A program made the translations under genes and the position numbers. The notes beneath the pieces were generated by a model. The model saw only the letters and a program-made list of their open reading frames with translations. It did no database searches and was not told the origin of the DNA. From the IMG/VR virus record IMGVR_UViG_3300042780_000023: a stretch of 26,488 nt of DNA; one strand, given 5' to 3'. Source of the DNA: a virus. Numbering within the stretch: position 1 is the first letter of the stretch; each line of letters begins with the position of its first letter. Shown here in pieces: positions 2,955 to 19,298 of the stretch.

Positions 2955-2997
2955 TTTTCTTTTTCAAGCCTCGTCCCTTCAGGGCGGGGAGGAGGTC
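2955..2997 (+). mobile_element. Orphan IS200/IS605 (IS1341-type) right-end hairpin, copy 1
   Basis: ttttctttttcaagcctcgtcccttcagggcggggaggaggtc, the typical archaeal tnpB right-end motif. No tnpA/tnpB in the window. Confidence 0.7.
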
Positions 2998-3047
2998 GCC
3001 TGAGGACTTTTTCATTTTTAATATTAAAGAAGAAGGAGGTGTTGGAG

Positions 3048-3362
3048 ATGAAAGAAGGAGTTTCGGGCGCAATTAAGCAGGAGCAGGAGGTAAGGAAGGT
3101 GGTGGACATGGAGGTGGAGAAATTGCTTGAACACTTGTCGAGGATAGGGCTGATGGAAGTGTTCGAGGATGGGAGAATTGTAGTGAAAACAACAGTGTTC
3201 AGTCTTCAGGAGTGGAAAAGATTTGCAGAGGAGCTCGGGCTTGAAATAGTTAACATAGTCGCAGTAGCACTCGGCAACGCAAGAATGAGGATTGAAATCT
3301 GGTTCAAGAAGTCTCAGAATGAGAGCTCGCCCTTCAGGGCGGGGAGGAGGTCAGTCCTCTGA
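3048..3362 (+). CDS. Hypothetical protein whose C-terminus (SSPFRAGRRS) is read through an IS605 right end
   Basis: Strong GGAGGTG RBS, visibly more GC-rich than the flanks. An alternative ATG at 3108 also has an RBS. Confidence 0.65.
   Translation: MKEGVSGAIKQEQEVRKVVDMEVEKLLEHLSRIGLMEVFEDGRIVVKTTVFSLQEWKRFAEELGLEIVNIVAVALGNARMRIEIWFKKSQNESSPFRAGRRSVL
3326..3355 (+). mobile_element. Orphan IS200/IS605 right-end hairpin, copy 2
   Basis: ctcgcccttcagggcggggaggaggtcagt, the exact reverse complement of 19252-19281. Confidence 0.75.
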
Positions 3363-3476
3363 CCTCGCCGACCCTCAACTTTTTGTCTCTACCCTCCTCA
3401 ACAGCTTCTCTCACCTTGATTTACCATTTATATAGAATATGAATATAGTAGCTTCTTCTCTTCCTCTAATGTGATG

Positions 3477-3532
3477 ACCTTATAGTCGTTAGCCTATTCT
3501 ACTTATTAGGATAATTGACTAATACGCAATAC
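3477..3532 (+). repeat. 56-bp repeat, inverted relative to 19299-19354
   Basis: accttatagtcgttagcctattctacttattaggataattgactaatacgcaatac matches the reverse complement of 19299-19354 with one mismatch. Confidence 0.9.
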
Positions 3533-3610
3533 ATTATTTAATCTACCAGAGCATATTCTTCTTTATTTAGTTAGTTTTTGTATTCTATTCTTGTATTCAC
3601 ATATTAATTC

Positions 3611-3631
3611 ACCAAAAACCTTATAAGGTAG
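3611..3631 (+). promoter_or_regulatory. Rightward promoter for the phosphoesterase gene
   Basis: accaaaaaccTTATAAggtag, about 35 nt upstream of GTG 3662. Mirror copy of 2859-2878. Confidence 0.6.
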
Positions 3632-3661
3632 ATTTTAAAACAAATTAGTTGAGGCGATATT

Positions 3662-4870
3662 GTGAAGCCAAGCCTTTTGAAATTGGTAACTATCCTTAAA
3701 GAAAACGGAGGAATACTACAAAGGCAACAACTGCAAAAATTATCTAATTTTAAACCAAATGCGTTTAGGGCTCGACTTTCTGAATTACGAAAGCTTGGCA
3801 TGGTTAGTGTTGAAGACAATAATGTTATATTGCTAAGAGATACCATTGATGAAAATGAAAAGCAAGATACAGAGAACTTAACTAAAAAGTTGCAGGCTCT
3901 TTTAGATGAAGGAATTATTATTGAAAAAGAGAGGGAGGTGGAGGGGAGAAAAGCAACGGTGGTAATAAGCGATATGCACTTTGGAGATGAAAACGTAATG
4001 CTAAACACGTATCGCTCTGCAGTAAATAACTTAATTAAAAAACTAAGAGAATTAGACAAAGAAAAGAAAATAAGCCTGATCAGAATAATCCTTAACGGCG
4101 ATATAGTATCTGGAAGGGGAATTTTTAGATGGCAAGAAGCCCAAAACGTGTTCAATAAAGGCAATATTCAAATATTGTACGCATCGGCTTTTATTTTAGA
4201 GTTACATGAAAAACTAAGCGAAATTGCAGAAACAGAGTATTTTGTTCTGAAGGGTAACCACGACCAGCACAGAAAAGATAACTACGCTTGGGAGCTAACG
4301 GACAAATTAAGAAGTTATGGGCTTAATGCTTTTTACGCAGGACACCAGCTAATAATGAACTTAGGTAATGATAATAAACAGCATTGGGTTCTTATCGAGC
4401 ATGGCTATGGTGGAAGTGATTATTATCCCGTGAGCTACGATTTTTTGAGAAATACATGGAAAAAGATAACTTGGCTTAACAGGTTGCAGAAAGAGAAGAG
4501 AAGGGATGAAATAGAAAGGGTAATAGTAGGTCACTCACACTGGTTAGTAACGAACTTAAGGCAAGATCCCTTCTGGGCTATTGATGTAAGCGGTGGTTTT
4601 CAAAGAAATGAAAGAGTAGAGCTGGGCAAAAATCAAAGACCAGCTGGGTTCTTATTATACGTTTTCGATGAAGAGAAGGACGGTCTAACAATATACGACT
4701 GGAAAAAGGGCTTAAGGCTTTTTGAGATAGTTGCAGATGAAGAAATAATGCTCCATGAGTTATTAGACCCAGCACTTGAACTAAAGAATAGGATGGACGC
4801 TCCAAAAACGCTAATGCAGTTATATAACAAGCTGGTAGAGATGGGATTAATTAAGAAGGAGGTAGGGTAA
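3662..4870 (+). CDS. Calcineurin-like metallophosphoesterase with N-terminal winged-HTH
   Basis: Motifs SDMHFG, NGDIV, GNHD, EHG and GHSH. N-terminus LQRQQLQKLSNFKPNAFRARLSELRKLGMV is wHTH-like. Confidence 0.85.
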   Translation: MKPSLLKLVTILKENGGILQRQQLQKLSNFKPNAFRARLSELRKLGMVSVEDNNVILLRDTIDENEKQDTENLTKKLQALLDEGIIIEKEREVEGRKATVVISDMHFGDENVMLNTYRSAVNNLIKKLRELDKEKKISLIRIILNGDIVSGRGIFRWQEAQNVFNKGNIQILYASAFILELHEKLSEIAETEYFVLKGNHDQHRKDNYAWELTDKLRSYGLNAFYAGHQLIMNLGNDNKQHWVLIEHGYGGSDYYPVSYDFLRNTWKKITWLNRLQKEKRRDEIERVIVGHSHWLVTNLRQDPFWAIDVSGGFQRNERVELGKNQRPAGFLLYVFDEEKDGLTIYDWKKGLRLFEIVADEEIMLHELLDPALELKNRMDAPKTLMQLYNKLVEMGLIKKEVG

Positions 4871-5085
4871 TGTATTATTATCTAACTGCAAAAAAAGATG
4901 ATTTTTTATTGTATTTTATTATACTACTATTAGCAAGTATTCCAGCGGTAACATCGTATCTTTTTTGGCGATGGCTTAACCCAGCAACATTTTATGAAAG
5001 ACTGCTTACGTTTTTAGCAATAGTTTTCATAGTCTATCCAGTTACGTTAGTTATTGAAATTTTATTCTTAGACCTATTAGAGTGA
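4870..5085 (+). CDS. Small membrane protein (2 TM)
   Basis: Two hydrophobic stretches. TAATG stop-start overlap with the upstream gene. Confidence 0.65.
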   Translation: MYYYLTAKKDDFLLYFIILLLASIPAVTSYLFWRWLNPATFYERLLTFLAIVFIVYPVTLVIEILFLDLLE

Positions 5086-5150
5086 TTAAATAATAATTAA
5101 ATCAGCCCTGTTAAAATAAGTTTATTTTATCTCGCAAAGGAGGTATAAAA

Positions 5151-5660
5151 ATGAGTTACCAGCCTGTTTTTTATATAGAGTTAGACGATGTGATTTTTGA
5201 GATAGAAAAGACCCAGATCCAAATAACTGAAAGAGGAACGATACAGAGTAGCGATTTTATATTCCACATTCAAACAAAAGATGATTATATTAAACTATCG
5301 TTCACTACAGAAACAGCTCTTTTCTTTGCAAGATTATTAAACTATGCTGTAGAATTCGCTACGAATACTTTTCTTAATTCCCCTGCTCCAGCGAGGCATT
5401 ATAAACTACTTCTTAAGCACGATAAGATAAGGACCATCACAGTCCAAGCCTTTCCGAGCGATGTTAGAATTATCCTTATTGGCTCTACTGATATGATAGA
5501 GATCCATATGCCACTAATAGATGCAAACTGGTTAAGTGAGGTATTACACTATGAAGCGTTAAGGGAGTATGCTAATTTAAGCGAAACTCAGCAAGTGCTT
5601 TACGATGAAATATGTAAGAAGAAAGAAGAGGATGACATGGAGGGGAGGGAGTTTGGTTAA
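5151..5660 (+). CDS. Hypothetical protein
   Basis: 169-aa ORF with an AGGAGGT RBS. Confidence 0.7.
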   Translation: MSYQPVFYIELDDVIFEIEKTQIQITERGTIQSSDFIFHIQTKDDYIKLSFTTETALFFARLLNYAVEFATNTFLNSPAPARHYKLLLKHDKIRTITVQAFPSDVRIILIGSTDMIEIHMPLIDANWLSEVLHYEALREYANLSETQQVLYDEICKKKEEDDMEGREFG

Positions 5661-6120
5661 GTGTCCTCTCTGTGGTTCTGATAAGCTTTTCTATGATCCT
5701 GCTCGAGGAGAATACTACTGTGGCGAGTGTGGTTACGTTTATGATTATGATGAGATACCATCAAGAGAAAGATTAGCAGAAATTAAAGGAGACATATCAA
5801 TAAATAATTTAAAAATAAATAGTTACAACGAGGATAATACTATTTATGCAGTACATGAGGTCTACAGGTTATCCTCTTGGCTAAGGATGCCAAAGCATAT
5901 GGTTAGGGAAGCAATTAATATATATATTAATATGATATATAAGAATAATCTCCACCGTAAATTAAACATCCCAATCGAGGACATTATTCCAGCATTAATA
6001 ATATTGATCTACAAAAAATATAGTTTAAACTGCAATTATGATGTTTTATTCAAGTATGCTAAATCAGATCCAAATGCTATCCTTTCATCATACTACAAGC
6101 TTTACAACTATATAGAGTAA
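5653..6120 (+). CDS. Truncated transcription factor B (TFB/TFIIB) homolog: Zn ribbon plus one cyclin-like repeat
   Basis: CPLCGSDKLFYDPARGEYYCGECG (C-x2-C-x15-C-x2-C). AVHEVYRLSSWLRMPKHMVREAINIY resembles TFB core repeat 1. TTG 5653 follows a GGAGGG RBS. Confidence 0.75.
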   Translation: MVKCPLCGSDKLFYDPARGEYYCGECGYVYDYDEIPSRERLAEIKGDISINNLKINSYNEDNTIYAVHEVYRLSSWLRMPKHMVREAINIYINMIYKNNLHRKLNIPIEDIIPALIILIYKKYSLNCNYDVLFKYAKSDPNAILSSYYKLYNYIE

Positions 6121-6271
6121 GACCTTATTGCATAATATATATAGGGAGTGTTAAATTTGGGGAGAGGCGGGGATTTACTCCCCCTCTCCACCCCAATGTG
6201 GGATTAATAATTATTACTATTGTCAATAGTTATCATAACTCTTGATGTTTTGCGAAAGAGGAGGCTTTAGA

Positions 6272-7366
6272 ATGGAGATACGAATGATCAAAATTGATGA
6301 ATTGATCCCGTATGTGAATAATCCTAAGAATTTTGTGATTATAGCAGGGCATGGGCGTTATGAAGCGGCTAAACTTTTAGGTTTAGAAGAAGTCCCAGTT
6401 ATTGTTGCGGATGATTTAACCCCGGCACAGGTTAAGGCTTTTAGAATCGCAGACAACAAAGTAGCGGAGAGCGAATGGGATGAACTTTCTCTCCAAGCTG
6501 AATTAGAGCAGTTACTGGAAGAAGGCTACGATCTCGAATTAACAGGTTTTGATGATGAAGAGATAGAGCGACTTTTCAAGGAATTAAGAGAAAATGAAAA
6601 TGTTGATGAAGAAAAGGAAGACGATTTACCAGGCGTTAAAGAAGAATTAGACCCATTTTCAAAAGAAAGAGATGTATGGATCTTAGGTGAGCATCTGGTG
6701 ATGTGTGGCGACAGCACGAAACGAGAAGATGTTGAGAGGTTGATGGGTAAAGAGAAGGCTAATGTTATCCTAACTGATCCACCATACGACTTTGACGATT
6801 TGAGTTGGTTCAATAATGCTCTCTCAATAGCAAATAAGGAGAGTTGCGAAATTTTTGTGATGAATAGCGATAAGTATCTTGTTAAACTTGCATATAACTA
6901 TTTTAATTATTTTAAGTATTTCTTCTCAGTTACACTAAAGCCTGGCATTTTAGTTAATAACAATATGCCAATAACGGCTCATGATTTAATTGCTTACTTC
7001 AGAGTAGGCAAAACAAAGTTCAAAAACCTATATGATGCATTTTCAACAGCTCTCGAAATTAATAAGCGGAAAGATGATATACATAGGCATTTAAAACCTG
7101 TTGCGTTATTTAAAGAGTTTATCATCCATTTTTCTGATGAAGAGGAGATTATTGTTGATCTGTTTGCTGGTTCAGGCACAACCCTAATTGCTTGTGAGGA
7201 AACACGAAGAAAAGCGAGGCTTATGGAACTTGAACCTGCTAATGTTGATCTAATTGTAAAAAGATATATCGATGCTTTTGGTAATGATGACATAAAACTC
7301 ATTAGGGATGGGATGGAAATTCCGTTTTATGAGATTGAAGAGGAGTTTATGGCTCGTTTTGAGTGA
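6272..7366 (+). CDS. ParB/Srx-like N-terminal domain fused to an amino-(N6A/N4C) DNA methyltransferase, beta class
   Basis: IIAGHGRYEAAKLLG (ParB), LTDPPY (motif IV), HLKPV, DLFAGSGTT (motif I). ATG 6272 follows GAGGAGG. Confidence 0.85.
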   Translation: MEIRMIKIDELIPYVNNPKNFVIIAGHGRYEAAKLLGLEEVPVIVADDLTPAQVKAFRIADNKVAESEWDELSLQAELEQLLEEGYDLELTGFDDEEIERLFKELRENENVDEEKEDDLPGVKEELDPFSKERDVWILGEHLVMCGDSTKREDVERLMGKEKANVILTDPPYDFDDLSWFNNALSIANKESCEIFVMNSDKYLVKLAYNYFNYFKYFFSVTLKPGILVNNNMPITAHDLIAYFRVGKTKFKNLYDAFSTALEINKRKDDIHRHLKPVALFKEFIIHFSDEEEIIVDLFAGSGTTLIACEETRRKARLMELEPANVDLIVKRYIDAFGNDDIKLIRDGMEIPFYEIEEEFMARFE

Positions 7367-7827
7367 TACTAATGGAAGCTGAAGTTTTAATTAAACAGAT
7401 GCCTGCAAAGGTTTTAAAAGCTTACGAAATTTGGACTAAAACACACTCTAATAAAAAAACAGCCGAATTAATAGGTGTTAGCGAAAGAACAATAAGCGTT
7501 TGGAAGAAGAAATACCGCTGGGGGGACATAGAGGCGGAAACTTTAGCAAGGATAATAGATGAAGCTAATGATAAAGTGTCTAAAATAAAAGAAGATCAAC
7601 GAAAAATAGTAACTGCCGCTATAGCTTCAGCAATAAAACAATTAAAAGAAGGCAAAATAAAAGCACGCTCTTTTTCAGATTTAGTTACCCTTCTCAAATA
7701 CCAGCTGGAGCTCGAAGGAGAGTTTAAACAGGATGTTAATGTTAATGTGTCACTTTCACTTGCCAGCCTCCACGAAGAATTAGAGAGAAGAAGGAGAGAA
7801 GCTGGGGAGGGGATGAAGGCTGAATAA
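7363..7827 (+). CDS. terS: Terminase small subunit (HTH)
   Basis: HTH KKTAELIGVSERTISVWKKKYRW, a helical region, and position immediately before TerL. Confidence 0.7.
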   Translation: MILMEAEVLIKQMPAKVLKAYEIWTKTHSNKKTAELIGVSERTISVWKKKYRWGDIEAETLARIIDEANDKVSKIKEDQRKIVTAAIASAIKQLKEGKIKARSFSDLVTLLKYQLELEGEFKQDVNVNVSLSLASLHEELERRRREAGEGMKAE

Positions 7828-9184
7828 GGTTGATTTTGTTGATTTATTAGCTCAATGGCAGAAAGATCCTATTCAATTTATTATTGATCTTTTTGGTGAG
7901 AAGCCCGACCCTCTCCAAGCAGATGTGCTAAAGGCGATATCTAAGAATAAGAAAATAGCAGTAAGGAGTGGTCATGGAGTAGGAAAAACTTGGTTAGCAG
8001 CACGAGCAGCAATATGGTTTTTTGTAACTCATCCTCATTCTAAGGTAATAACTACTGCTCCTACTTGGCAACAGGTTAGAAAAGTTTTATGGTCTGAAAT
8101 TCATTCAGCGTTAAGAAAAGTTCCGCCAATTCTTAGAGATAATTTTGATATTTTAGATATGGATATTTATATGAAAGATAAGAATGGAGAGAGAATTCAA
8201 GATTGGTATATTACTGGGAGGAGTAGTGATAGACCAGAAAACATGCAAGGTTTCCACGCTCCTTACTTGTTTTATGTCATCGATGAGGCATCTGGTGTAA
8301 AAGATGAAATTTACGAGGCAATAGAAGGAAGTCAAACCACAGAGGCAAAAATGCTTTTAATAGGCAACCCAACCAAACCAGAAGGATATTTTTATGATGC
8401 TTTTCATAAGAACAGGGAGTTATGGGTTACTTTTCATTTATCCAGTCTTGATAGCCCGAGAGTGAGTAAAGACTGGATTGAAGAGAGAAAGCGAGAATGG
8501 GGGGAGGATAGCGTTTTATATAAGGTTAGAGTGCTCGGTGAATTCCCTGACGTAATAAGTAACGCTTTAATTCCGCTTCATTGGATTGAAAAGGCGATAA
8601 ATGTTGATCTGCATGTTGATAATTTTGATGAAATCAGAATAGGGGTAGATGTTGCGAGGATGGGAGAGGATGAAACAGTAATAACTGTGATAGGGCAAAA
8701 TGGAGAGCATATCAAAGTTATAGATATAATTTCAGCTCAAGGAAAAGAAACAACTTGGACAGCAAGGAGAGTCAAGAGGTTATATGAGAAGTATAACGCT
8801 AAAATAGTAAATGTTGATGATACTGGTGTAGGTGGTGGAGTAACAGACTTATTAAAAGAGGAGGGCGTAAAAGTCAATCCAATTAAGTTTGGAGCATCCC
8901 CTACAAGGGGGGAGGCTAAACTTCTTTTCGCTAACTTAAAAGCCCAAATTTATTATGAGCTAAGAGATTATTTTGATCCTTCTAAAGAGCAGATGATAAG
9001 CATCCCAGACCACCCAAAGTTGATTAGGGATCTTTCAGCGTTAAAACAAGATTACACGAGCAGAGATTTAATAAAAATCATTGATCCACCAAAAAGCCCG
9101 GATTACTCAGATAGTTTAGCTTTAGCGGTTACGAGAGTAGGGAGAAGAGAGGTTTTAAGACCACCAAGCGTTTTTTTGGGGTGA
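7820..9184 (+). CDS. terL: Terminase large subunit
   Basis: Walker A VRSGHGVGKT, Walker B IDEASG, coupling motif IGNP, RNase H-like GVDVARMGEDET and PDYSDSLALA. The frame is open from 7817. The start at CTG 7820 is inferred; the ORF track gives GTG 7925. Confidence 0.9.
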   Translation: MNKVDFVDLLAQWQKDPIQFIIDLFGEKPDPLQADVLKAISKNKKIAVRSGHGVGKTWLAARAAIWFFVTHPHSKVITTAPTWQQVRKVLWSEIHSALRKVPPILRDNFDILDMDIYMKDKNGERIQDWYITGRSSDRPENMQGFHAPYLFYVIDEASGVKDEIYEAIEGSQTTEAKMLLIGNPTKPEGYFYDAFHKNRELWVTFHLSSLDSPRVSKDWIEERKREWGEDSVLYKVRVLGEFPDVISNALIPLHWIEKAINVDLHVDNFDEIRIGVDVARMGEDETVITVIGQNGEHIKVIDIISAQGKETTWTARRVKRLYEKYNAKIVNVDDTGVGGGVTDLLKEEGVKVNPIKFGASPTRGEAKLLFANLKAQIYYELRDYFDPSKEQMISIPDHPKLIRDLSALKQDYTSRDLIKIIDPPKSPDYSDSLALAVTRVGRREVLRPPSVFLG

Positions 9185-9190
9185 TATAGG

Positions 9191-9478
9191 TTGGTAGAAA
9201 CTAAATGGTATGTAGGAACTGTGGGCGTTAAGCTTGTCGTTGAAACAGGACAGGATTTATCTACTGCTTTTCAAGTGAGCGTTTTAGTAAAAAAGCCTGA
9301 TGGGACACAAGAAGAATGGATAGGAACTGCTAACGGCACACAGATAGAGTATATTATTCAAAATGGAGATTTAGACCAAGCTGGAATCTACAGAATTCAA
9401 GCAAAGGTTACTTTTGCGGATGGATCTGTTTGGTATGGACATACAGATGTTTTAGTAATTTATGAGTTATTTGAGTAG
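9191..9478 (+). CDS. Virion structural protein, BppU N-terminal-like Ig fold
   Basis: VKKPDG...GDLDQAGIYRIQAKVTFADG pattern. Confidence 0.5.
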   Translation: MVETKWYVGTVGVKLVVETGQDLSTAFQVSVLVKKPDGTQEEWIGTANGTQIEYIIQNGDLDQAGIYRIQAKVTFADGSVWYGHTDVLVIYELFE

Positions 9479-9491
9479 GGGGTTGATAAAA

Positions 9492-9962
9492 ATGGGTAAA
9501 GAAAAGTTTGGGTTAAAAGGAAAGGTAAAAATACGAATTTTTAAGGCGAAAACAGGCGAAGTTATAGAGGAAGAGTTTGATAATTTGGTAGTGAACGCTG
9601 GAAAAGCAGAAGTAGCTAAATTAATTGGCTCTGGGCTTGGAGGAACAGCATTTGGTTATATAGCGATTGGAACTGGGACTACAGCGGAAGCAGCAACTGA
9701 TACAGCAATGGAGGTAGAATTAAAGAGGAAAGCCGCAACTGTTACAAGCGTTACAAGCAACATTACTAACGACACCGCAAGATTTGAAGCAACATTTAGC
9801 TCTGATGACGGGCTAACTGGAACTTCCGCTGTTACCGAATATGGGTTATTTAACGACCCCACCGCTGGAACTATGCTCAGCAGAGTAGTTCAATCAGCTA
9901 AAAACCTGGACTGGGACGCCGGGGACAGTCTCACCGTCACGTGGGATATTATTGTCAGCTGA
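9492..9962 (+). CDS. Virion protein resembling a tail-collar/fibre attachment domain
   Basis: NLVVNAG...YIAIGTG...ATDT..E.E..RK...TEYGLF pattern. ATG 9492 follows a GGGGGT RBS. Confidence 0.55.
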   Translation: MGKEKFGLKGKVKIRIFKAKTGEVIEEEFDNLVVNAGKAEVAKLIGSGLGGTAFGYIAIGTGTTAEAATDTAMEVELKRKAATVTSVTSNITNDTARFEATFSSDDGLTGTSAVTEYGLFNDPTAGTMLSRVVQSAKNLDWDAGDSLTVTWDIIVS

Positions 9963-9976
9963 TTTTTTTGCTTTTT
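9963..9976 (+). terminator. T-tract terminator candidate
   Basis: tttttttgcttttt directly after the stop at 9962. Confidence 0.35.
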
Positions 9977-10013
9977 ACCTACTAACTAAATTAAGTAAGC
10001 AGGTGAAGTAAAA

Positions 10014-11141
10014 ATGACTTGGCTAACAGGGTGGACGTATAGACGAAGCATCACCATAACGGAGCAAAGCGGGAGTGATTTAACAGATTATCAAGTAAAA
10101 ATAGAATTAAATAGTTCAAACTTTGACTTTTCTAAAGCAAATGCTGATGGTAGCGATATTAGGTTTGCAGCAGAGGATGGGACAACATTATTGCCTTATT
10201 GGATTGAAGAATGGGATAGCGGTAATCAAACAGCAAAGATATGGGTAAAAATTCCAAGTTTGTTAGCAAATTCAAGCATAACGATTTATATGTATTATGG
10301 GAACGAGAACGCAGTAAGTGAGAGTAACGCTGAAGAAGTTTTTGACTTTTACGACGATTTCAACGGCACGGATTTAGACTTTAGCAAGTGGAAGAAAGAA
10401 GGGAACTTAAATTATTCACTATCTAACGGCATGTTAACAATTGAGGAGACAGCGGGAACATGGGGGTTTATACGACCGCTTAAGAATTTTCCATCAAGGA
10501 ACATAGTTTTTGAGGCCTACAGGAAACATAACAGTGGGTCAGAAGTGAATCATTATATACACAATTATGATGCAAACAGGAACATATGGGAGAATAAAAG
10601 CTGGTATAGGGCCGAAACAAGAACCACAGACACTTATGGAATAACCCGTTATACTCAGAGTGACTCTTCACAAACACAGTTATATCGCACATCTTTAGAA
10701 ATTAACATTTTTAGGCTTTACAGCGTTGCGATCGATGACACGAATATTAAATTTTACGTTGATAATGTTTTAAAGTATAGTGAAGCCTGTAGGCTTTCAG
10801 AACTGGACAGGCTTTATTATTCAATATCTTTATGGTACTATGGAAACGGGACTATAGACTGGGTGAGAGTGAGAAAATACGCAGATCCAGAGCCGACTTT
10901 CACGGTTAGTGCTGAGGGAGTCCCTATATCAGGTATAGTAAAGTTGTCAGATGGAACGCCCGTGAGTGGTGCTACTGTAATCTGTATAAGGGAAGACACT
11001 AATACAATAGTTGGAGTTACAACATCGCAAACAGATGGGAGTTATACTGTTTCGGCTGCTGAGGGAGTTAAAAATACCGTTATAGTAATTCCATCTGATG
11101 GCACACAAAATGGAGATATTAAGTGTCATATAGTGCCTTAA
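10014..11141 (+). CDS. DUF2341 / ConA-like adhesin-type protein with C-terminal carboxypeptidase-regulatory-like Ig domain
   Basis: WTYRRSIT...DGSDIRF...LPYWIE...IWVKIP...IYMYYGN (DUF2341), FDFYDDF, and ISGIVK..DGTPVSGATV...TSQTDGSY. Confidence 0.75.
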   Translation: MTWLTGWTYRRSITITEQSGSDLTDYQVKIELNSSNFDFSKANADGSDIRFAAEDGTTLLPYWIEEWDSGNQTAKIWVKIPSLLANSSITIYMYYGNENAVSESNAEEVFDFYDDFNGTDLDFSKWKKEGNLNYSLSNGMLTIEETAGTWGFIRPLKNFPSRNIVFEAYRKHNSGSEVNHYIHNYDANRNIWENKSWYRAETRTTDTYGITRYTQSDSSQTQLYRTSLEINIFRLYSVAIDDTNIKFYVDNVLKYSEACRLSELDRLYYSISLWYYGNGTIDWVRVRKYADPEPTFTVSAEGVPISGIVKLSDGTPVSGATVICIREDTNTIVGVTTSQTDGSYTVSAAEGVKNTVIVIPSDGTQNGDIKCHIVP

Positions 11142-11152
11142 CGGTGGCATAA

Positions 11153-12262
11153 ATGACTTATACCCCTCCTTCATCAAACAATGTGGAACTAACTATACAA
11201 ACAAGTTATTCATCACCAGCATCTACAAACGTAGAGCTTATAATAGATTTAGGTGTAGTAACTTACTCTATTACAATAGTAGAAGGAATGACTTTAGTAA
11301 GTTCTCCAGCCAAGCAATTAAGCAGGGTACAACAAATAGCATTAACTTTAACTTTAGCAGAGGATTTACAAAAAGTATTACCTTTGCTTGTATCAAATAC
11401 TGATAATATAACTTTAAACGAGAGCTTATTAAAAAAGGAGTTGGTGAGAAAGCTACTTAGCGAGATTATAACTTTAACTGAAGACTTGGCTAAGCAAGGC
11501 GTTCTTAATTTACCTTTATCAGAGCTTTTGTTTTTGGATGAAGACACTACCACAGCGGGAGACTTCAAGTCCGGCTTAGTTGATAATGTTACACTCGTCG
11601 AAGCGATATTTTATATTAAGCAGTTAAACAGCATTTTGAAAGAGAGCATTAATATAAATGAAGTAACAGCATTCACAAGTTTAATAAATAAAATACTATC
11701 TGATTTAGTAAACTTAATTGAAAATGTAGATTTAAAATCAGGAAGCGGGCAGTATATAGTAGATACATTATCTCTTTCAGAGGAGAGAAGGCTTAATTTA
11801 TTAAGCGCATTAGTAGACAGCGTTGTTTTGCAAGAGCTTTTAACGAAAGTTTATACTGCCTTCATACAAAATATAGAGAACATACATCTGAGCGAAAAGA
11901 CTGAGAGGAGGATTGGTATAAGCTATAGCGAGGCAATAACTCTATTAGATACAATCATAAAAGAATTAAAAATTATACTGTATGACAACATAGCATTAAA
12001 CGAGTTTATTACTTATCATTTAACAGCTTCTCTTTTAACTGAGATAATGTTAAACGAAGCCCAGCAAGGGAGCGCTTACTTAACGGAACAAATCCTCGAC
12101 ACGTTAGGGTTAAGCGATCAAATTGATGTAATCCGTCAATTGCTCACTATTTCCGGCGAGTATAATTTAGTTTCATTGATTTTAACGGCTAAATTGCTTA
12201 ATTCTGATATTGGAGCGATAATAAAGTTATACTCTTTAATTAAAAAAGAGGAGGATATATGA
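11153..12262 (+). CDS. Repetitive virion fibre-like protein
   Basis: Recurring [D/E]x[ILV]x[LI]x[D/E] units about 18-21 aa apart. N-terminal duplicate YTPPSSNNVEL / YSSPASTNVEL. Confidence 0.55.
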   Translation: MTYTPPSSNNVELTIQTSYSSPASTNVELIIDLGVVTYSITIVEGMTLVSSPAKQLSRVQQIALTLTLAEDLQKVLPLLVSNTDNITLNESLLKKELVRKLLSEIITLTEDLAKQGVLNLPLSELLFLDEDTTTAGDFKSGLVDNVTLVEAIFYIKQLNSILKESININEVTAFTSLINKILSDLVNLIENVDLKSGSGQYIVDTLSLSEERRLNLLSALVDSVVLQELLTKVYTAFIQNIENIHLSEKTERRIGISYSEAITLLDTIIKELKIILYDNIALNEFITYHLTASLLTEIMLNEAQQGSAYLTEQILDTLGLSDQIDVIRQLLTISGEYNLVSLILTAKLLNSDIGAIIKLYSLIKKEEDI

Positions 12263-13530
12263 TGAAAATTGATTTAAAAGGTTTATTTAAACAAAAGCAA
12301 GTGCCTAAGCCTCCAGTAGAACTTAGAAAATCAAACTCATCTACTTTGGAATATGCACAATTAACAACAAAAGCATATGCTTTAGATAGAGAGCTCTTAA
12401 TCTTATGTGAGAATGCTTATTTAAGTGAGCCCTTAACCAGAAAGGGAATACTGAAACGAAGCCATGATACTTTTGAGAGATGGATCACAATTATAACAGA
12501 AAACGAAGCAATAGAAGAAGCCTTTTATGAGCTCGAGGATAAAACAGACTTGAAAAATAAATTAATTGACCTGCTTAAAAACGCAATGATCTATGGCGTT
12601 GGTTACTTAGAGATAATCTTTGAAAACGATGATAGAAGAGCTGAGGAAGAGCCTCCTAAAACGCCAATCATAGGGATTGAATTAATAGATCCAAAGACAA
12701 TTTGCCCAGTTTACCAGTCTGATCCTAAAAAAGAAGATTATGGAGAACTGCTTTATTATGAGCAGAGAATAAACGAACTGCCGGGTTATGGGCTCAAAAT
12801 TCATCCAAAACGGATAATTGAATTTAAATACGATACGATAGGCGATGGAAAGAGACCAATCGGTGTTATAGAACCGATGCTTTATGTTATTGAAGCCAAA
12901 ATAACGCTAGATAAAGCGTCTGGAAAAATACCCAAAAAAGTGATCTCTCAGATTATAACTGCTACTTTAAAAGGTGATGGTGTTACTCAGCAACTATTAG
13001 ATGAATGGGCAAAGGCTTTTGCGAAAATGGAAGATGTAGGTCGTTTCGTTACTCCCGAAATGGTAGAAGTGGATATTAAAGAGGGAGGAAAGGCTTTAGA
13101 TATTAAGCCTTATTCAGAGCATTTAATCTATCAGATAGCTGGAGGAGTAGGAGTTCCTTATACCGTTTTGCTTGGATCAGGGCACGGAACATTAAGCACA
13201 GCTGAAACTAATTTAAGAGATTATTATAGTGATCTAAAAGACCTTCAAGTAAGATTTACACCGATAATTACGAGATTACTGGACTGGGAGCTTGAAGCGA
13301 GAGGAATTAGCGGAGATTATGATATCGTATGGAACGAGATTTACGCTGATGAAAAGAGCGAAGCAGAGGTTTTAGCTACAAAAGCGAAGGCAATAGACCT
13401 TCTTCTTATGAGCGGAGTTATAAGCGTTAATGAAGCAAGAGAATATCTTAACCTGCCCCCTTTGGAAGAAGAGGAATTGATGGAGAGATACGGCACACCA
13501 GTCAAAAGAGGTAGGTATGCTCATGGCTAA
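12259..13530 (+). CDS. Portal protein
   Basis: 423 aa. Helical N-terminus, IHPKRIIEF, IAGGVGVPYTVLLG, and LLMSGVISVNEAREYLNLPP C-terminus. Position before the MuF gene. Confidence 0.85.
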   Translation: MMKIDLKGLFKQKQVPKPPVELRKSNSSTLEYAQLTTKAYALDRELLILCENAYLSEPLTRKGILKRSHDTFERWITIITENEAIEEAFYELEDKTDLKNKLIDLLKNAMIYGVGYLEIIFENDDRRAEEEPPKTPIIGIELIDPKTICPVYQSDPKKEDYGELLYYEQRINELPGYGLKIHPKRIIEFKYDTIGDGKRPIGVIEPMLYVIEAKITLDKASGKIPKKVISQIITATLKGDGVTQQLLDEWAKAFAKMEDVGRFVTPEMVEVDIKEGGKALDIKPYSEHLIYQIAGGVGVPYTVLLGSGHGTLSTAETNLRDYYSDLKDLQVRFTPIITRLLDWELEARGISGDYDIVWNEIYADEKSEAEVLATKAKAIDLLLMSGVISVNEAREYLNLPPLEEEELMERYGTPVKRGRYAHG

Positions 13531-14272
13531 GCCTGATCTCGATATTCTGTTTAAAGTTGTAGATGATCTACTGTATAATATGCTCGAGGCGACTAAGGAA
13601 GGTAGTATTAAGTATATAGAAGAAGCGTATAAGAAAGGGCTCGATAAAGCTAACTCAGATCTCAAAAAATATGGTTGGACTTTTGATATTCCTCCGGATC
13701 CTCACAGCATTGAATTTTTAGAGCAATACACTTTTGATCTGATTACAGGCGTAGGAGAGGATGTAAGAAAGGAAATACGGAGAGTGGTTAGGCAGGGAAT
13801 TTTAGACGGTAAAAGTATGCAAAAAGTAGCGAAAGAGTTGAGAGATGTAGGTTTTACAAGAAAGAAATGGCGATTAAACACTATCGCAAGAACTGAGGTA
13901 ATGAGAGCAAGTAATTATGGAAGGTTAGAGGGGTATAAAAAAAGCGGAGTAGTGAAATACAAACAATGGCTTACTGCTTTTGATGATAGGACTTGCCCAG
14001 AATGTGAGGCGATGAATGGAGAAATAGCGGAGATAGATAAGCCTTTTTCGTCTGGAGAACAAGCTCCTCCTCTTCATCCTAATTGTAGATGCACGATTGT
14101 TCCAGTTTTTGAAAAAAAGGAATTAAGACGGCATTATCATTTTGGTAGAAAGGGGGAGTTAAACGTCAAGAGGATAGAGGCAAAATTTGCGAGACATCTT
14201 CAAAATAGCTTTAAAGAGATTATTAAGGCAGTTATAGAGCTAATAAGCCAATATTGGGGTGTTTTAGCTTGA
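13517..14272 (+). CDS. Mu gpF / SPP1 gp7-like minor head protein
   Basis: IARTEVMRASN, KQWLTAFDDRTCPEC, PPLHPNCRC. Confidence 0.9.
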   Translation: MLMAKPDLDILFKVVDDLLYNMLEATKEGSIKYIEEAYKKGLDKANSDLKKYGWTFDIPPDPHSIEFLEQYTFDLITGVGEDVRKEIRRVVRQGILDGKSMQKVAKELRDVGFTRKKWRLNTIARTEVMRASNYGRLEGYKKSGVVKYKQWLTAFDDRTCPECEAMNGEIAEIDKPFSSGEQAPPLHPNCRCTIVPVFEKKELRRHYHFGRKGELNVKRIEAKFARHLQNSFKEIIKAVIELISQYWGVLA

Positions 14273-14595
14273 CTGGCATCGAATTAATTGGGTTTAAATC
14301 ACTTAATAAGAAGCTACAGCAGTTAGAAGAGCTGGATAAAAAAATAGAGATAATAGCTTTAATGGTTGAAAAAGAGGCAAAGGAACTTTGTCCCGTTAGA
14401 ACTGGTCGTTTAAGGGCGTCTATCCATGCTGGAAAAGAAAACAAATATACTCATTATGTAGGCACGAATGTAGAATATGCTCCTTTTGTCGAGTTTGGAA
14501 CGAGAAAAATGAGAGCACAGCCGTATTTACGCCCTGCAGTTAAAAAGGTAGTTAATTATGTGAAACAACAAGGAATAAGCTGGTGGATAGATTGA
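14269..14595 (+). CDS. HK97 gp10-like neck/tail completion protein
   Basis: CPVRTGRLRASI and YAPFVEFGTRKMRAQPYLRPA. TTG 14269 overlaps the upstream TGA. Confidence 0.8.
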   Translation: MTGIELIGFKSLNKKLQQLEELDKKIEIIALMVEKEAKELCPVRTGRLRASIHAGKENKYTHYVGTNVEYAPFVEFGTRKMRAQPYLRPAVKKVVNYVKQQGISWWID

Positions 14596-14867
14596 ACGGA
14601 GAATATGACGAAAAGTTTGGAAAGATTTTTGAAAAACTTGAAAATCAGGAAATGATTTTACAGGAGATAAAAGAGAGATTAAAGGCAATTGATACGCTAC
14701 AAGAAAGGGTTCTTAGGTTAGAGTTATGGGCTACTCACCACGATAAAATGCATATGTTAGATAATAAAAACATTATTATCGATAAGCAGACAGGGTTGGC
14801 TATTTTAAGCATTTTAGCCGCAGGAGGCTTTTTTGGTTATATACTTAGTTTAATATTAGGGGGGTGA
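14583..14867 (+). CDS. Coiled-coil protein with C-terminal TM helix
   Basis: Heptad N-terminus and a hydrophobic C-terminus LAILSILAAGGFFGYILSLILGG. Confidence 0.65.
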   Translation: MDRLNGEYDEKFGKIFEKLENQEMILQEIKERLKAIDTLQERVLRLELWATHHDKMHMLDNKNIIIDKQTGLAILSILAAGGFFGYILSLILGG

Positions 14868-16234
14868 AAATAACGAAGGAAAAAGTAAAACTAACAGTAG
14901 GAATTGATAAGGGCGAACTTTTAGAAGAAGGCACAATTATTAAACTTCCACTCTCAACGATACTTAGCGAAGGAACGCATAACGGTATTCTCTTCTTAGC
15001 CGAAGAAATAGAAAAAGCAAAAGTCCCTCAGGTTTTTCCGCTTACATTAAATCATAGTAGGGATGTTGAGGATGAAGTAGGATGGTGGGAGAGTCCAAGA
15101 GTTGAAGACAATAAACTAAGAGCAATCCCAGTTATAAATCTCGAAACGTCAAAAGGTAAAGCCGCATTAGGATACGTAAAGAATAGGCTTCAAGCTGGGT
15201 TAGTTCCAGAAGTCTCTGTTGAAGTATGGGCTGATATCGATACAGACGATAAAGGTAACAGAGTTGCGAGGAATTTAGAAATAGATAAGGCTTCTTTAGT
15301 CGATAGAGGAGCATGTAATCCAGAAAAAGGCTGTGGTATTGGTTTAAAGGAGGGGATAAAGATGGGTGTTGTTCCTAAGCACCCGTGGAAGTATGGTAAA
15401 GACGCTGAAAGCTCCTGGAGTAAACCAAATCTAAGCGATTTTACTTCAAAGAGATGGGATGAGCTTTCAGATGCAGAGAAAAGGACTATAGCAGGGCATT
15501 TTGCTTGGGCTGAGAAAATGCCTCCAGAGACTTATGGACAATTAAAACTGCCTCACCACGATCCAAAGTCCCACGCCGTGGTTTGGAACGGAGTTAGAGC
15601 CGCAATGGCAGCATTAATGGGAGCAAGGGGAGGCGTTAATATCCCAAGTGCTGATAAAAAGAAAGTTTACTCACACTTATCTGCACACTATAAAGAATTC
15701 GATAAACAGCCACCAGAGGCGAAATTTAGCGAAGAAGGGGAGATTTTAGAGTTTAGATTTTTTGAAGGAGAAGAGGAGTTTTTTGAAATGGAGGACGGAG
15801 TTATGAATGAGGAAATACCGGAAATGGAGGAGCAACAAGAAGTGGAAGCAACTATTGAACAAGAAGAGAATAAGCTTGAATTCTGCAAGGATGAATATGA
15901 AGCTCTTATTAAAGAAAAAGAAGAAGAGATTTCTAAACTTAAAGCAGAGATTGAAGAGCTAAAGAAACTTTATGAAGACGCTAAAGCGAAAGTAGACGCT
16001 TATGAGCAGAGAGAAAAAGAAGAGCTAATAAACGAGTTAAAGAAGCTTAACCCCGATTTTGACCCAAAAGGGAAAGAATTGGAGGAATTAAGGTTTTTGG
16101 TTGAATTTGCGAAAGGCGTTAAGAAGTTTGGGCGTAAGAGTTTGGTTATTTCGCCCGTTGAGGACGATCCGAGGAAAAAATATGAGGAAATTTTGAGAAT
16201 GAAAGTTAAAGAAATGTTAAGGAGGAGTGAATGA
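14864..16234 (+). CDS. Prohead protease - accessory domain - scaffold fusion
   Basis: LTLNHSRD...VGW (His) and VSVE (Ser) protease-like motifs, a central LKLPHH/VVWNGVRAAM domain, an acidic coiled-coil C-terminus, and position directly before the MCP. Confidence 0.75.
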   Translation: MKITKEKVKLTVGIDKGELLEEGTIIKLPLSTILSEGTHNGILFLAEEIEKAKVPQVFPLTLNHSRDVEDEVGWWESPRVEDNKLRAIPVINLETSKGKAALGYVKNRLQAGLVPEVSVEVWADIDTDDKGNRVARNLEIDKASLVDRGACNPEKGCGIGLKEGIKMGVVPKHPWKYGKDAESSWSKPNLSDFTSKRWDELSDAEKRTIAGHFAWAEKMPPETYGQLKLPHHDPKSHAVVWNGVRAAMAALMGARGGVNIPSADKKKVYSHLSAHYKEFDKQPPEAKFSEEGEILEFRFFEGEEEFFEMEDGVMNEEIPEMEEQQEVEATIEQEENKLEFCKDEYEALIKEKEEEISKLKAEIEELKKLYEDAKAKVDAYEQREKEELINELKKLNPDFDPKGKELEELRFLVEFAKGVKKFGRKSLVISPVEDDPRKKYEEILRMKVKEMLRRSE

Positions 16235-17178
16235 AAATGGTAGATGTAGCTAAACTTCAAAAGGAGTTTGAGGAACTTGCAACTACTACTACAAGCGATA
16301 TATCAGCTATTATAAAGAGCGAAGTATTTTCTAAGCTAATAGTAGATGAGGCAGCTCTTGGTAGGAAACTTGCCGGGATTATCTCTGCAGTTCAAGAAGA
16401 CCTGCAAAAAGGCGATGGCGATACTATAAAAGTTAGAATATTCCCCAAAATTTCCGTCGCTCAGGTAGCGGAAGGAGCGGCTAATGAACTTGCGGCTTAT
16501 CATCCATTCTCTTCAAGCGTGACGATAAACAGGTATTCTGCTACGGTCCCACTAACAGGACAGAGCATTTACGAGGCATCTGTAGATCTACAGGCTAAGA
16601 TTATTTCAAGATTAGCAGATGCATGGGCTGAGAAAATGGATGAAGTAATCACCCAAAAGCTCGACCTAGGAGCGGCAACAGGAACAAACTATACTCCAGC
16701 CGTTAAAGAAGTTCTCGCTTCAGCGGGAGACTTTTCAGACTTTTACGCTAAGCTAAAAGCTCTCGTTGATACTATGAGATATAGCAAGGGACTTAACCCA
16801 GATTATCTTATTATACCAAAAGAGATTAAAGCACAACTTATAAGCGATTATGAAGATGGAACAAAGAGGTATGCAATAGAAGTCGATGAGAATGGAGAGC
16901 TTAAGAGCGTGTATGGGCTTAAAGTAATAGTTGCTCCTTTTGCATCATCGGATAAGACACCTAACCAAGTCGTTGCGGTTGTGCTCGATAGCTCTATAGC
17001 AGTTGTCGAAGCAAGAGGAAAACCAGCCCTATTTGAAGAAAAGAGAGAGCCTGAGTATGACATCTACAAAGAAGTGTTTAACGCATACTGGGGAGTAGAT
17101 GTTGTTAAAGCAGATCTCGACGGTAATAGCATAGCTGAAGCAATAGGTATTGGACAAGTAGTGAACCCAGAGGCCTGA
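16231..17178 (+). CDS. Major capsid protein (HK97 fold)
   Basis: 315 aa after the scaffold. GDTIKVRIFP, VAEGA, YLIIP, VYGLKVIV and a following terminator. Confidence 0.85.
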   Translation: MKMVDVAKLQKEFEELATTTTSDISAIIKSEVFSKLIVDEAALGRKLAGIISAVQEDLQKGDGDTIKVRIFPKISVAQVAEGAANELAAYHPFSSSVTINRYSATVPLTGQSIYEASVDLQAKIISRLADAWAEKMDEVITQKLDLGAATGTNYTPAVKEVLASAGDFSDFYAKLKALVDTMRYSKGLNPDYLIIPKEIKAQLISDYEDGTKRYAIEVDENGELKSVYGLKVIVAPFASSDKTPNQVVAVVLDSSIAVVEARGKPALFEEKREPEYDIYKEVFNAYWGVDVVKADLDGNSIAEAIGIGQVVNPEA

Positions 17179-17187
17179 TAGCGTAGC

Positions 17188-17201
17188 TTTTCTTTTTCTT
17201 T
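17188..17201 (+). terminator. T-tract terminator after MCP
   Basis: ttttctttttcttt. Confidence 0.5.
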
Positions 17202-17228
17202 AATTTAATTTACTTTTAGGAGGAAACC

Positions 17229-17834
17229 GTGATGCTTTACGGTGATTTATTAAGTATCAGGGCTTTAACAGGTTTAACGAGTGAAGACGTTAGCGATGAA
17301 GAGATTGCTCAGGTTATGCAGTTAGCTAATAGAATTGTGCTTAAGACTACTCAGGGAAAAATAATCAGAGAACAGCCAAGACAGCTAGGGAGCGATAGGT
17401 TAGTTTATCAAACTAATTATTATCCAGTTGCGGATACGGATGGAGATGGACAGGTTACGAGTAACGATATTAAAGTAGAAGCGTTAAACCCAATCGCAAG
17501 TTTTGATATGTGGCGAACTTTACAAATAGACCAAATAAATGCTGATTATGGACTTATAAAACTATTAAACGCTCCAGCAGATGGAGAAAGGGTATTTGTA
17601 ACATATTCATATATCCCTGATGGGATCACGAAAGAAGATTTAGATGATTTAGTTAATCTGCTTACTGCTCACATCCTCACTTTAAGACTGCAGAACCCAG
17701 ATACGGTTGCGATTACTGATTTAGGCGCTAATGAGCTTGTTATCAAAAAACAGGAGACTAAGTTCTTAGATGTGTATAAATTAAAACTAAACACAGTTAT
17801 GAGCATAAAATGGATGAGGAGTATTGAGCCATGA
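17229..17834 (+). CDS. Head-tail adaptor-like protein with inserted beta domain
   Basis: Position after the MCP. Helical N- and C-termini (DEEIAQVMQLANRIV; LDDLVNLLTAHIL) and an internal DTDGDG motif. Confidence 0.55.
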   Translation: MMLYGDLLSIRALTGLTSEDVSDEEIAQVMQLANRIVLKTTQGKIIREQPRQLGSDRLVYQTNYYPVADTDGDGQVTSNDIKVEALNPIASFDMWRTLQIDQINADYGLIKLLNAPADGERVFVTYSYIPDGITKEDLDDLVNLLTAHILTLRLQNPDTVAITDLGANELVIKKQETKFLDVYKLKLNTVMSIKWMRSIEP

Positions 17835-18268
17835 GTGATTATAGAGCTGAGTTAAAAACTAGGCTTAGTGGCATTACTTATACGGATAAATTAAACACAG
17901 TTCAAGCGGTAAACGTTTATTACGAGGAGGATCTAACGCAAGGGAAAGCAAGATTTAAAACACCCGCATTGATTATAAGGGGAATTCGACAGTTAATAGA
18001 CCCTATGGATATTGGTTGGAACTTATATGATGAGCTTTACGAGATTGATGTAACTTTATACTTAAAATTGCGGAGTGATAGTTATACTGCTTGGACTGTG
18101 AGGGAGGAAATTACTCATCAGATGATTTCTCTTGCGAAGCAGAATAAGGACGGGCTAACAGCTGATGATCTTTACTTAAAGCTCGTTGAAATTATTGATA
18201 GGAATTATTTGGAAGAAGTTGGAATTTTAAGGAGGGATTTTAGTTTTGAAATTTACAAGGAGGGATAA
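17831..18268 (+). CDS. Tail terminator / neck protein
   Basis: Position before the tail tube. VNVYYEE, TPALII and RRDFSFEI pattern. Confidence 0.5.
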   Translation: MSDYRAELKTRLSGITYTDKLNTVQAVNVYYEEDLTQGKARFKTPALIIRGIRQLIDPMDIGWNLYDELYEIDVTLYLKLRSDSYTAWTVREEITHQMISLAKQNKDGLTADDLYLKLVEIIDRNYLEEVGILRRDFSFEIYKEG

Positions 18269-18270
18269 GT

Positions 18271-19185
18271 TTGGCGTATCAATGGATAAAAATGGGCAAT
18301 ATAAGTAATAAAGGTGTTTATATCGGGCTTTTAGCAAAAGAAGACGATTTAACCATCGAAAAAGACTTAGAAGAAGAGTATTATATTCATTCAGTTCATC
18401 CATTAGAAGTAAGAAACGCAAAGGTAGCCCCTTCTGGGAGTATAACACTTCCGCTGAAACCAGAAGACGGCTTAGATGAATTACTTTACGCTTTCTTTGG
18501 GACTGTATCGACATCTTCGACATCTGAAACTGGTCCTTACACTCATACTTTCACAGTAAAAGAGAAAGATATCCCAGAATTTGAGATTATAAAAGCAATC
18601 GGCTCAATACAGGAGAAATATACTGGGTGTAAAGTTAGAAGTATCGAGATTTCAGCTAACGCAAGTGGAGAGTTTGAGGTTACAGTTGAAATAGTAGCAA
18701 AGAATGGACAGCAAGTTACAGGTGAAACAGAAGGAACTTATACGTTATCTAAGACTATGAAGGTCACATCCTCCTCAATCACGTGGGGAGGAATTGAATA
18801 TGGTATAGGCTCTGCAACAATTACACTTGAAAGAGATTTAGCAGAGGATGGCTTTTACTTAAATAGCGACGCTGGAAGGTCTGTAATTCCAGAAGGAAAC
18901 TTTAAAGCGAGTGTTAAGCTCGATGTTTTAGTAGATGACGTGACGTTTATCCAAGACTTTTTAGCAGGGACTACAAAATCATTAGCAATCACTTTCCAGA
19001 ATGCAGATGGACAGAGCCTTGTTATTAATATCCCAGTCGGGGTTATTGTTAGCAGGGCAAAATCCACTGATGTTGGCAAACAGCTTTTAGTTGAAGAAGT
19101 GGAGATAATTGGAATTGACGACGGCACAAACGGATCTGCATATGTTGAATTAACTAATTCTATCGCTTCATATCCGAGAACTTAA
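18271..19185 (+). CDS. Major tail tube protein
   Basis: 304 aa, beta-rich. SGSITL, YTHTFT, YTGCKVRSIEIS. No sheath gene nearby. Confidence 0.75.
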   Translation: MAYQWIKMGNISNKGVYIGLLAKEDDLTIEKDLEEEYYIHSVHPLEVRNAKVAPSGSITLPLKPEDGLDELLYAFFGTVSTSSTSETGPYTHTFTVKEKDIPEFEIIKAIGSIQEKYTGCKVRSIEISANASGEFEVTVEIVAKNGQQVTGETEGTYTLSKTMKVTSSSITWGGIEYGIGSATITLERDLAEDGFYLNSDAGRSVIPEGNFKASVKLDVLVDDVTFIQDFLAGTTKSLAITFQNADGQSLVINIPVGVIVSRAKSTDVGKQLLVEEVEIIGIDDGTNGSAYVELTNSIASYPRT

Positions 19186-19192
19186 TTAGTTA

Positions 19193-19211
19193 TTTTTTTA
19201 TTTTTTTATTT
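19193..19211 (+). terminator. T-tract terminator after tail tube
   Basis: tttttttatttttttattt. Confidence 0.5.
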
Positions 19212-19251
19212 CAAAATCCAAACTGTTTTTATAAAACAATTATGTAAAAGC

Positions 19252-19298
19252 ACTGACCTCCTCCCCGCCCTGAAGGGCGAGGCTTTCAAAAGAAAAAG
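19252..19298 (-). mobile_element. Orphan IS200/IS605 right-end hairpin, copy 3
   Basis: Minus strand reads ctttttcttttgaaagcctcgcccttcagggcggggaggaggtcagt. Confidence 0.75.

Follow-up and report, generated by a model that had tools for sequence, protein, structure and literature searches.

Gene-less, single-hairpin elements related to a Thermococcaceae IS200/IS605 insertion sequence in a head-tailed virus

The sequence analysed here is IMG/VR virus record IMGVR_UViG_3300042780_000023, a stretch of 26,488 nt (hereafter the window), in which a short hairpin motif resembling the right end of IS200/IS605 insertion sequences (IS) occurs three times. The initial annotation had reported three such copies, and both direct reading and a repeat finder recovered the hairpin with its tail at 2974-2997 (+), 3329-3352 (+) and 19255-19278 (-). 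Each hairpin consists of an 8-bp stem, including one G-U pair, closed by a TTCA loop and followed by a purine-rich 12-nt tail. Allowing at most one mismatch, this tail was found 3 times in the window vs 0.02 expected from shuffles, and a fourth, hairpin-less tail copy lies in the ~2.8 kb of viral genome beyond the window. Copies 2 and 3 match the same 24-mer, end in GGTCAG and share the reported 30-nt identity (3326-3355 vs 19281-19252). The TATA-like box that had been noted before copy 1 (2928-2935, ~20 nt away) and the T-tract after this copy (3008-3012) are both present, and a further T-tract follows copy 2 (3380-3384).

The three copies differ in their completeness (Table 1). Copy 3 agrees with the 42-nt consensus obtained from Thermococcaceae genomes with zero mismatches, while copy 1 carries an extra T in the 5' half of its stem and terminates in GGTCGC, not GGTCAG. 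Copy 2 has neither a left arm nor a preceding TTAC. No target duplication was seen at the viral copies.

Table 1. Coordinates of the hairpin copies and of neighbouring features in the window.
Feature	Position	Strand	Description
Target-like tetranucleotide CTAC	2951..2954	+	Directly 5' of copy 1; family consensus TTAC (35 host sites)
Copy 1, variant mini-element	2955..2999	+	Left-end arm 2955-2973, hairpin 2974-2985, right-end arm 2986-2997
Repeated ~70-nt cassette	2985..3057	+	Right-arm tail, stop codon, T-tracts, ribosome-binding site, first codons
Small conserved viral gene	3108..3362	+	Reading frame open from 3048; homologues start at codon 3108
Copy 2, truncated element	3327..3354	+	Hairpin and right-end arm ending GGTCAG
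Second 8-bp hairpin	3347..3384	+	Hairpin 3347-3366, formed by right arm of copy 2 and its flank, then T5 tract 3380-3384
56-nt repeat	3477..3532	+	Inverted partner 19299-19354; weaker similarity to 3457 / 19371
Copy 3, canonical 46-nt mini-element	19253..19298	-	Left arm 19298-19279, hairpin 19278-19267, right arm 19266-19253
Target-like tetranucleotide ATAC	19299..19302	-	5' of copy 3

The identity of the motif was examined by scanning for the exact 24-mer in one genome per prokaryotic species, which returned at least 120 loci in Thermococci, Archaeoglobi, Desulfurococcales, Caldisphaera, Nitrososphaeria, Marsarchaeota and a few bacteria. At many of these loci, in several archaeal phyla, the motif sits 14-27 nt past the stop codon of an open reading frame (ORF) of 300-460 amino acids (aa), and since all six upstream ORFs tested (from Thermococcus, Caldisphaera, Nitrososphaeria and an actinomycete) carry OrfB_IS605 and Cas12f1-like TNB domains, these ORFs are TnpB. 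GGTCAG marks the constant end of conservation across the loci. Because the 24-mer trails TnpB ORFs and conservation stops after GGTCAG, the motif is the right end of IS200/IS605 TnpB elements and, in the associated RNA, the guide-proximal end. Gomes-Filho et al. 2015 (PMC4615843) is consistent with this, as is the observation that HgcC1-3 of T. kodakarensis begin within transposase genes (Jaeger et al. 2014, PMC4247193). No large ORF of the window contains a match to OrfB_IS605 or Y1_Tnp, and the 2.8 kb beyond the window gave none either; the initial description of IS200/IS605 right-end hairpins without TnpA or TnpB therefore stands.

Comparison with the Rfam family HgcC (RF00062) gave 38.8 bits for copy 3 (19240-19339, minus strand), 25.5 bits for copy 2 and no match for copy 1, all below the gathering threshold of 50 bits. 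TnpB-linked Thermococcus ends reach just 40-46 bits in the same model, so that this threshold is strict for the Thermococcus clade. A faint match to sot0042, a sense-overlapping RNA of haloarchaeal tnpB genes, was also obtained, and both HgcC and sot0042 match the TnpB-linked ends as well as the viral copies. In a plasmid collection the hairpin and tail match 935 records at ~90-95% identity over 32-37 nt, 827 of them Klebsiella plasmids, and the module is therefore also present in bacterial IS200/IS605-type ends.

The origin of the remaining part of the elements was found at the opposite end of the same transposons. The 5' arm of copies 1 and 3 corresponds to the T-rich 19-20-nt start of the left end of full-length Thermococcus elements, not to the right-end scaffold; in both copies it ends in AAAG/CAAG plus CCTC, as at the left ends of loci L008, L059 and L190-192, and the variant left arm of copy 1 resembles that of the full-length Thermococcus IS at L008. 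By this comparison, copies 1 and 3 can be described as a left arm, one hairpin and a right arm, ~46 nt in all and with no genes. The search for a parent IS in candidate hosts, which the initial annotation had proposed, was successful when whole genomes were scanned for the hairpin: five copies of an autonomous, TTAC-flanked IS of ~1.9 kb, encoding Y1_Tnp and TnpB (Pfam), are present in the Thermococcaceae genome G083. The order of its parts is TTAC, left arm, hairpin (loop TTTA), core, hairpin (loop TTCA) and tail to GGTCAG. In the TnpA-centred loci L184-189, taken with 1.5-kb flanks, the hairpin was not seen.

The same left-arm/hairpin/right-arm chimera (42 nt, at most three mismatches) is present in 53 of the 97 Thermococcaceae species genomes, with a maximum of 15 copies in one genome, and a reversed control pattern was found 0 times. 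The 35 unique host sites have unrelated flanks, with TTAC before the element (T 29, T 27, A 22 and C 25 of 35) and random sequence immediately past GGTCAG. Both loop types occur among the host mini-copies, and in at least seven copies the loop-closing C-G pair is switched to G-C. Y1_Tnp (TnpA) was detected in 28 of the 97 genomes, and the mini-element accompanies it in 22 of these 28 vs 31 of the 69 TnpA-negative genomes (Fisher p = 0.003, not corrected for relatedness). The genome with the highest copy number (G030, 15 copies) has no TnpA, and for this reason two routes are possible: full-length insertions that repeatedly lost their core, and a mini form that moves by itself. Barabas et al. 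(2008) reportedly found for IS608 that the TTAC cleavage site base-pairs with a tetranucleotide, AAAG, beside the hairpin foot; AAAG adjoins the hairpin foot in these elements too.

Among the matches listed in the genome scan, Thermococci were the only group with the left-arm type of the mini-element. Desulfurococcales and Archaeoglobi hold many orphan copies with a shorter left arm that follows straight after TTAC (L005, L012, L034, L040, L045, L050 and others), and one metagenome-assembled genome carries at least six such copies. This suggests that parallel families of single-hairpin mini-elements may exist in other archaeal orders.

The left-arm type also bears on the host of the virus. A clustered regularly interspaced short palindromic repeats (CRISPR) array in the Thermococcaceae genome G088 (contig C116; 30-nt repeat typical of the group, at least 13 units) includes a spacer (L208 398-431) that is 100% identical over 34 nt to window 8799-8832, within the terminase gene. 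Because of this spacer match, together with the confinement of the left-arm type to Thermococci in the genome scan, the host can be assigned to the Thermococcaceae. Copy 3 is almost the only DNA common to 19.7 kb of the virus and the Thermococcaceae genomes, and 85 of the 97 genomes match it.

Among related viruses the copies have a narrow distribution. Relatives with 80-84% identical tail-tube proteins have a 42-nt spacer vs the 191 nt of the window that contain copy 3, and no HgcC-like match was found anywhere in these viral contigs. At the other site, one of these relatives, virus G005, has a divergent intergenic region of 108 nt vs 845 nt in the window, which hold copy 1, the small gene, copy 2 and the 56-nt repeat. 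Near-identical contigs from ~10 samples all carry the copies. Since the related viruses are without the copies and the near-identical contigs all have them, the copies are judged to be lineage-specific. A megablast of 24 kb against a phage collection gave no match.

The right-arm tail of copy 1 opens a repeated cassette of ~70 nt (Table 1), which also follows a 127-aa gene (gene X) outside the window, in the ~2.8 kb of the circularly permuted genome (L193 10176-10251); the cassette is moreover repeated at several early genes, with a reverse complement at 24744-24761. Two independently assembled contigs (L175/L176) join the 127-aa gene to window 2985-4862 at 100% identity and have no copy 1 hairpin. 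These contigs are recombinants between two inverted cassettes, an exchange that would invert ~3.9 kb. Two further contigs (L202/L203) are variants in the cassette spacer and indicate gene conversion between the two cassettes. The small gene has homologues of 77-84 aa, and nucleotide homology to the closest of them (locus L165) ends exactly at the first base of copy 2, which together with its flank has replaced the last 9 codons of the gene with 12 new codons and a stop. For this ORF no Pfam or PHROG family was found, and its candidacy as a TnpB remnant was rejected by protein-family search.

Taken together, we consider the three copies to be gene-less, single-hairpin derivatives or fragments, ~46 nt in length, of a Thermococcaceae IS200/IS605 element, acquired by a head-tailed virus and most likely neutral in effect, and we place the probability of this explanation at about 0.78. 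It corresponds to the alternative that the initial annotation had named beside guide loci, namely mini-elements of the type of palindrome-associated transposable elements (PATEs), and this alternative is supported in detail by the left arm/hairpin/right arm anatomy, the parent IS and the host copies. Such a derivative combines 19-20 nt from the start of the left end with a single subterminal hairpin and the terminal 14 nt of the right end. In the parent, the hairpin regions of the two ends are near-identical and form a direct repeat of ~20 nt, recombination at which would delete the core and leave a terminal-only element. The Y1 transposase TnpA would insert either the mini form or the full-length parent into single-stranded DNA, on the 3' side of TTAC-like sites. 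The virus would passively pick up such elements from the host IS pool while replicating in Thermococcaceae, and what entered may have been the 46-nt form already, or full-length insertions whose core was soon deleted. Copy 3 is intact, and copies 1 and 2 would later have been remodelled by recombination: copy 1 as a variant whose 3' tail runs into the repeated terminator/ribosome-binding-site cassette, and copy 2 by loss of its left arm and fusion onto the 3' end of the small gene. Possible side effects are stable RNA hairpins in adjoining transcripts, maybe with altered RNA ends, and recombination of viral genomes at these short repeats. There is no sign of a selected viral function.

Several points weigh against this explanation. 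The viral copies are preceded by ATAC (copy 3) and CTAC (copy 1), each a match to TTAC at three of four positions, and not by TTAC itself. Copy 2 has no left arm and copy 1 has an abnormal end, and both features could stem from recombination, not transposition. The proposed comparison with related viruses for empty sites was fruitful in part: relatives without the copies exist, but no clean 46-nt filled/empty pair was found, and because the relatives differ by ~150 and 740 nt, not 46 nt, simple insertion is not demonstrated for any copy. In addition, the 46-nt form keeps just the left-type tetranucleotide AAAG at its hairpin foot, and its own mobility is only possible. With regard to neutrality, expression of PATE and HgcC-type RNAs is known from other archaea, and the haloarchaeal virus HRTV-DL1 carries an expressed 489-bp PATE whose region is by far the most transcribed of its genome (PMC10544981).

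The other alternative of the initial annotation was that the copies are omega-RNA-like guide loci. The omega RNA of TnpB, the right-end RNA of IS200/IS605 elements, is reportedly the subject of work by Karvelis et al. in 2021 and Altae-Tran et al. in 2021; the viral hairpin and tail correspond to its 3' guide-proximal module, which is conserved letter for letter across phyla, and a guide would start after GGTCAG. The likeness is confined to this one module, with no scaffold, no adjacent tnpB and no target match. A covariance model (R1) built from five full-length Thermococcaceae right-end regions (alignment A6: L008, L059, L065, L099, L190) has 176 positions and 53 pairs, 12 of them with compensatory changes. 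The model gives 199 bits for other full copies and 71 bits for an independent copy that is partly masked, whereas viral copies 1, 2 and 3, scored even with filters off, reach 4.2, 0 and 6.8 bits and retain just the final 26-28 nt of the ~176-nt scaffold. In the RNAalifold structure of the full copies, a C-rich segment lying upstream pairs with the tail and the 3' half of the hairpin, and this segment is missing from the mini-elements; the pairing is alternative or pseudoknot-like to the terminal hairpin, and three more upstream stems show compensatory changes. As modelled, the viral copies are thus without the omega-RNA scaffold and cannot alone programme TnpB. The 3' flanks point the same way. 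That of copy 1, which had looked guide-like, is the stop/terminator/ribosome-binding-site cassette described above, present behind another gene, and is therefore not unique sequence. None of the three flanks has a second match within the window, and against IMG/VR copy 2 gave none and copy 3 two AT-rich chance matches without TTAC, so that the matches beside a target-adjacent motif which the initial annotation had proposed to look for were not obtained in the window or IMG/VR (host genomes were not searched).

The guide or decoy reading thus fails because the scaffold is missing, and a guide or decoy role toward host TnpB is unlikely. A function of the copies as trans-acting RNAs against host TnpB, whether as minimal guides with targeting 3' flanks or as titrating decoys, would fit the position of copy 1 just past a TATA-like box, the T5 tracts behind copies 1 and 2, the transcription in T. 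kodakarensis of orphan HgcC copies outside transposase genes (PMC4247193), and the finding that PATE-like elements occur alongside TnpB elements and often encode omega RNAs needing use in trans (Meers et al. 2023, PMC10055086). Set against the model scores and the flanks, and against related viruses and a natural variant (L175/L176) that do without the copies and the copy 1 hairpin, respectively, we regard it as very improbable. Scarcely credible is the version in which short RNAs from the elements engage host TnpB either as decoys that blunt a TnpB barrier or as minimal guides completed by a host scaffold; if true, the elements would be a viral counter-measure against, or a hijack of, a transposon nuclease. 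Somewhat better placed, though still improbable, is viral co-option of the copies as RNA elements in cis (a 5' leader for copy 1, a 3' end or terminator for copy 2, an intergenic element for copy 3) that stabilise or terminate transcripts in the manner of bacterial repetitive extragenic palindromic (REP) sequences. Copies 1 and 2 do bracket one small gene at its leader and 3' end, copy 2 and its flank would form two adjacent stable hairpins ahead of a T5 tract, T. kodakarensis has HgcC4 within the 5' region of a gene whose start site it shares (PMC4247193), and Halobacterium grew better when a PATE-derived RNA was overexpressed (PMC4615843). Yet neither related viruses nor the homologues of this small gene have the copies, the variant contigs keep the gene context without the copy 1 hairpin, and the folding energies of the copies are ordinary for their base composition (z -0.5 to -1.7). 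A tentative case can be made for the copies being chiefly recombination substrates, as short repeats common to host genomes and different viral loci, their positions marking breakpoints of module exchange or inversion and not insertions, given that each of the three lies at a homology boundary: similarity to the related gene at L165 stops at copy 2, L175/L176 are identical to the window from 2985 on with a different gene upstream, the cassette spacers vary in L202/L203, and the left junction of copy 3 is the exact end point of the 56-nt inverted repeat. The repeated unit at copy 1, however, is the ~70-nt cassette, of which the element tail forms just the first 13 nt, and no reciprocal recombination junction was recovered. 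Breakpoints at repeats are moreover expected for any repeat and imply no selected function. Such recombination is compatible with acquisition of IS-derived mini-elements and not exclusive of it.

Elements of this kind have precedents. Haloquadratum walsbyi carries IS605-type transposons and PATEs that were cut by repeat-mediated deletion between near-terminal palindromes to 52-bp terminal-only forms, and strain-specific insertions there raised the possibility that the short form can move (Dyall-Smith et al. 2011, PMC3119063). Those terminal-only PATEs, like the present elements, are gene-less, ~50 bp in length and made of fused termini around a single near-terminal palindrome; they show a short 5' targeting oligonucleotide, no target duplication and multiple strain-specific sites. 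The elements described here differ in their length of 46 nt, their Thermococcaceae IS origin, their viral location and the rearrangement of 2 of 3 viral copies. The transcript VNG_R0052 of Halobacterium joins part of a left end to the right-end stem-loop, and its tetraloop has been linked to HgcC (PMC4615843). The same UUCA-tetraloop hairpin and the same tail occur in HgcC, the sense-overlapping RNAs and VNG_R0052, although the viral copies lie below the Rfam threshold and the HgcC model includes ~90 nt of upstream scaffold that is missing here.

Among viruses, the hairpin module is also present in the published archaeal genomes of HAV2, ATV, SMV1, SMV3 and others. HAV2 (NC_014321) contains a full IS with tnpA and tnpB, annotated as ISDka2, and two mini-copies of the same architecture but of Desulfurococcales type; in our locus L209 these unannotated mini-copies lie at ~3016-3058 (+) and 6687-6729 (-), and the full IS at 7161-8954. 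In contrast to HAV2, ATV, SMV1 and HRTV-DL1, the virus studied here is head-tailed, belongs to a Thermococcaceae host lineage and has no full-length IS in its genome. In bacteria, REP/REPIN sequences are very short, dispersed single-hairpin repeats related to IS200/IS605 ends and mobilised by RAYT (TnpA-like) transposases. Unlike them, the present elements still show the two arms, left and right, of a canonical IS in recognisable form; REP as a counterpart has been named before (PMC4615843).

The original observation was thus correct, and what it uncovered is a known kind of element in a new host-virus setting, a finding that is real but ordinary and of modest direct significance. It establishes that a terminal-only IS200/IS605 form of ~46 nt is widespread in Thermococcaceae (53/97 species genomes) and reaches their viruses, and it traces this form to a parent IS with TTAC as target. 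The elements provide an independent marker of the host for an uncultivated head-tailed virus, backed by the perfect CRISPR spacer match. They also offer a very small and defined candidate substrate for asking whether a single hairpin with one left-type guide tetranucleotide suffices for mobility by TnpA. As a caution for annotation, an orphan right-end hairpin need not be a guide-RNA locus.

The site of copy 3 has a further peculiarity, in that the 56-nt repeat belongs to an inverted duplication (3457-3539 / 19293-19371) of the promoter and leader region of gene 19377, with 95% identity over the core of 56 nt and 89% over 83 nt. At 3.5 kb the duplicate is oriented leftwards and no ORF belongs to it. 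The repeat at 3477-3532 was considered as a clean empty-site paralogue of the copy 3 site and rejected, as homology does not resume past the element. No match to the repeat was found in a metagenome scan, which also missed the source contigs.

Some minor observations concern the genome as a whole and the organisation around the small gene. The viral genome is circularly permuted and ~29-29.9 kb in length, and the ~2.8 kb outside the window (L193 9259-12075) contains ORFs of 48, 127, 109 and 465 aa without Pfam matches. Gene X and a helix-turn-helix (HTH)-phosphoesterase gene have no relative in IMG/VR, and because the gene preceding the small-gene homologue in L166 is related neither to gene X nor to a 121-aa protein of the window, a simple ancestral gene order cannot be reconstructed. 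A composite transposon, formed by the whole virus or by the unit of copy 1, gene and copy 2, was considered and set aside, as copy 2 is without a left arm and meets the gene at a short similarity. The lineage-specific insert of ~740 nt is flanked by 25-nt inverted promoter-like boxes with a palindromic TATA core (2858-2882 and 3608-3632) and sits between divergent RNA-ligase and HTH-phosphoesterase operons.

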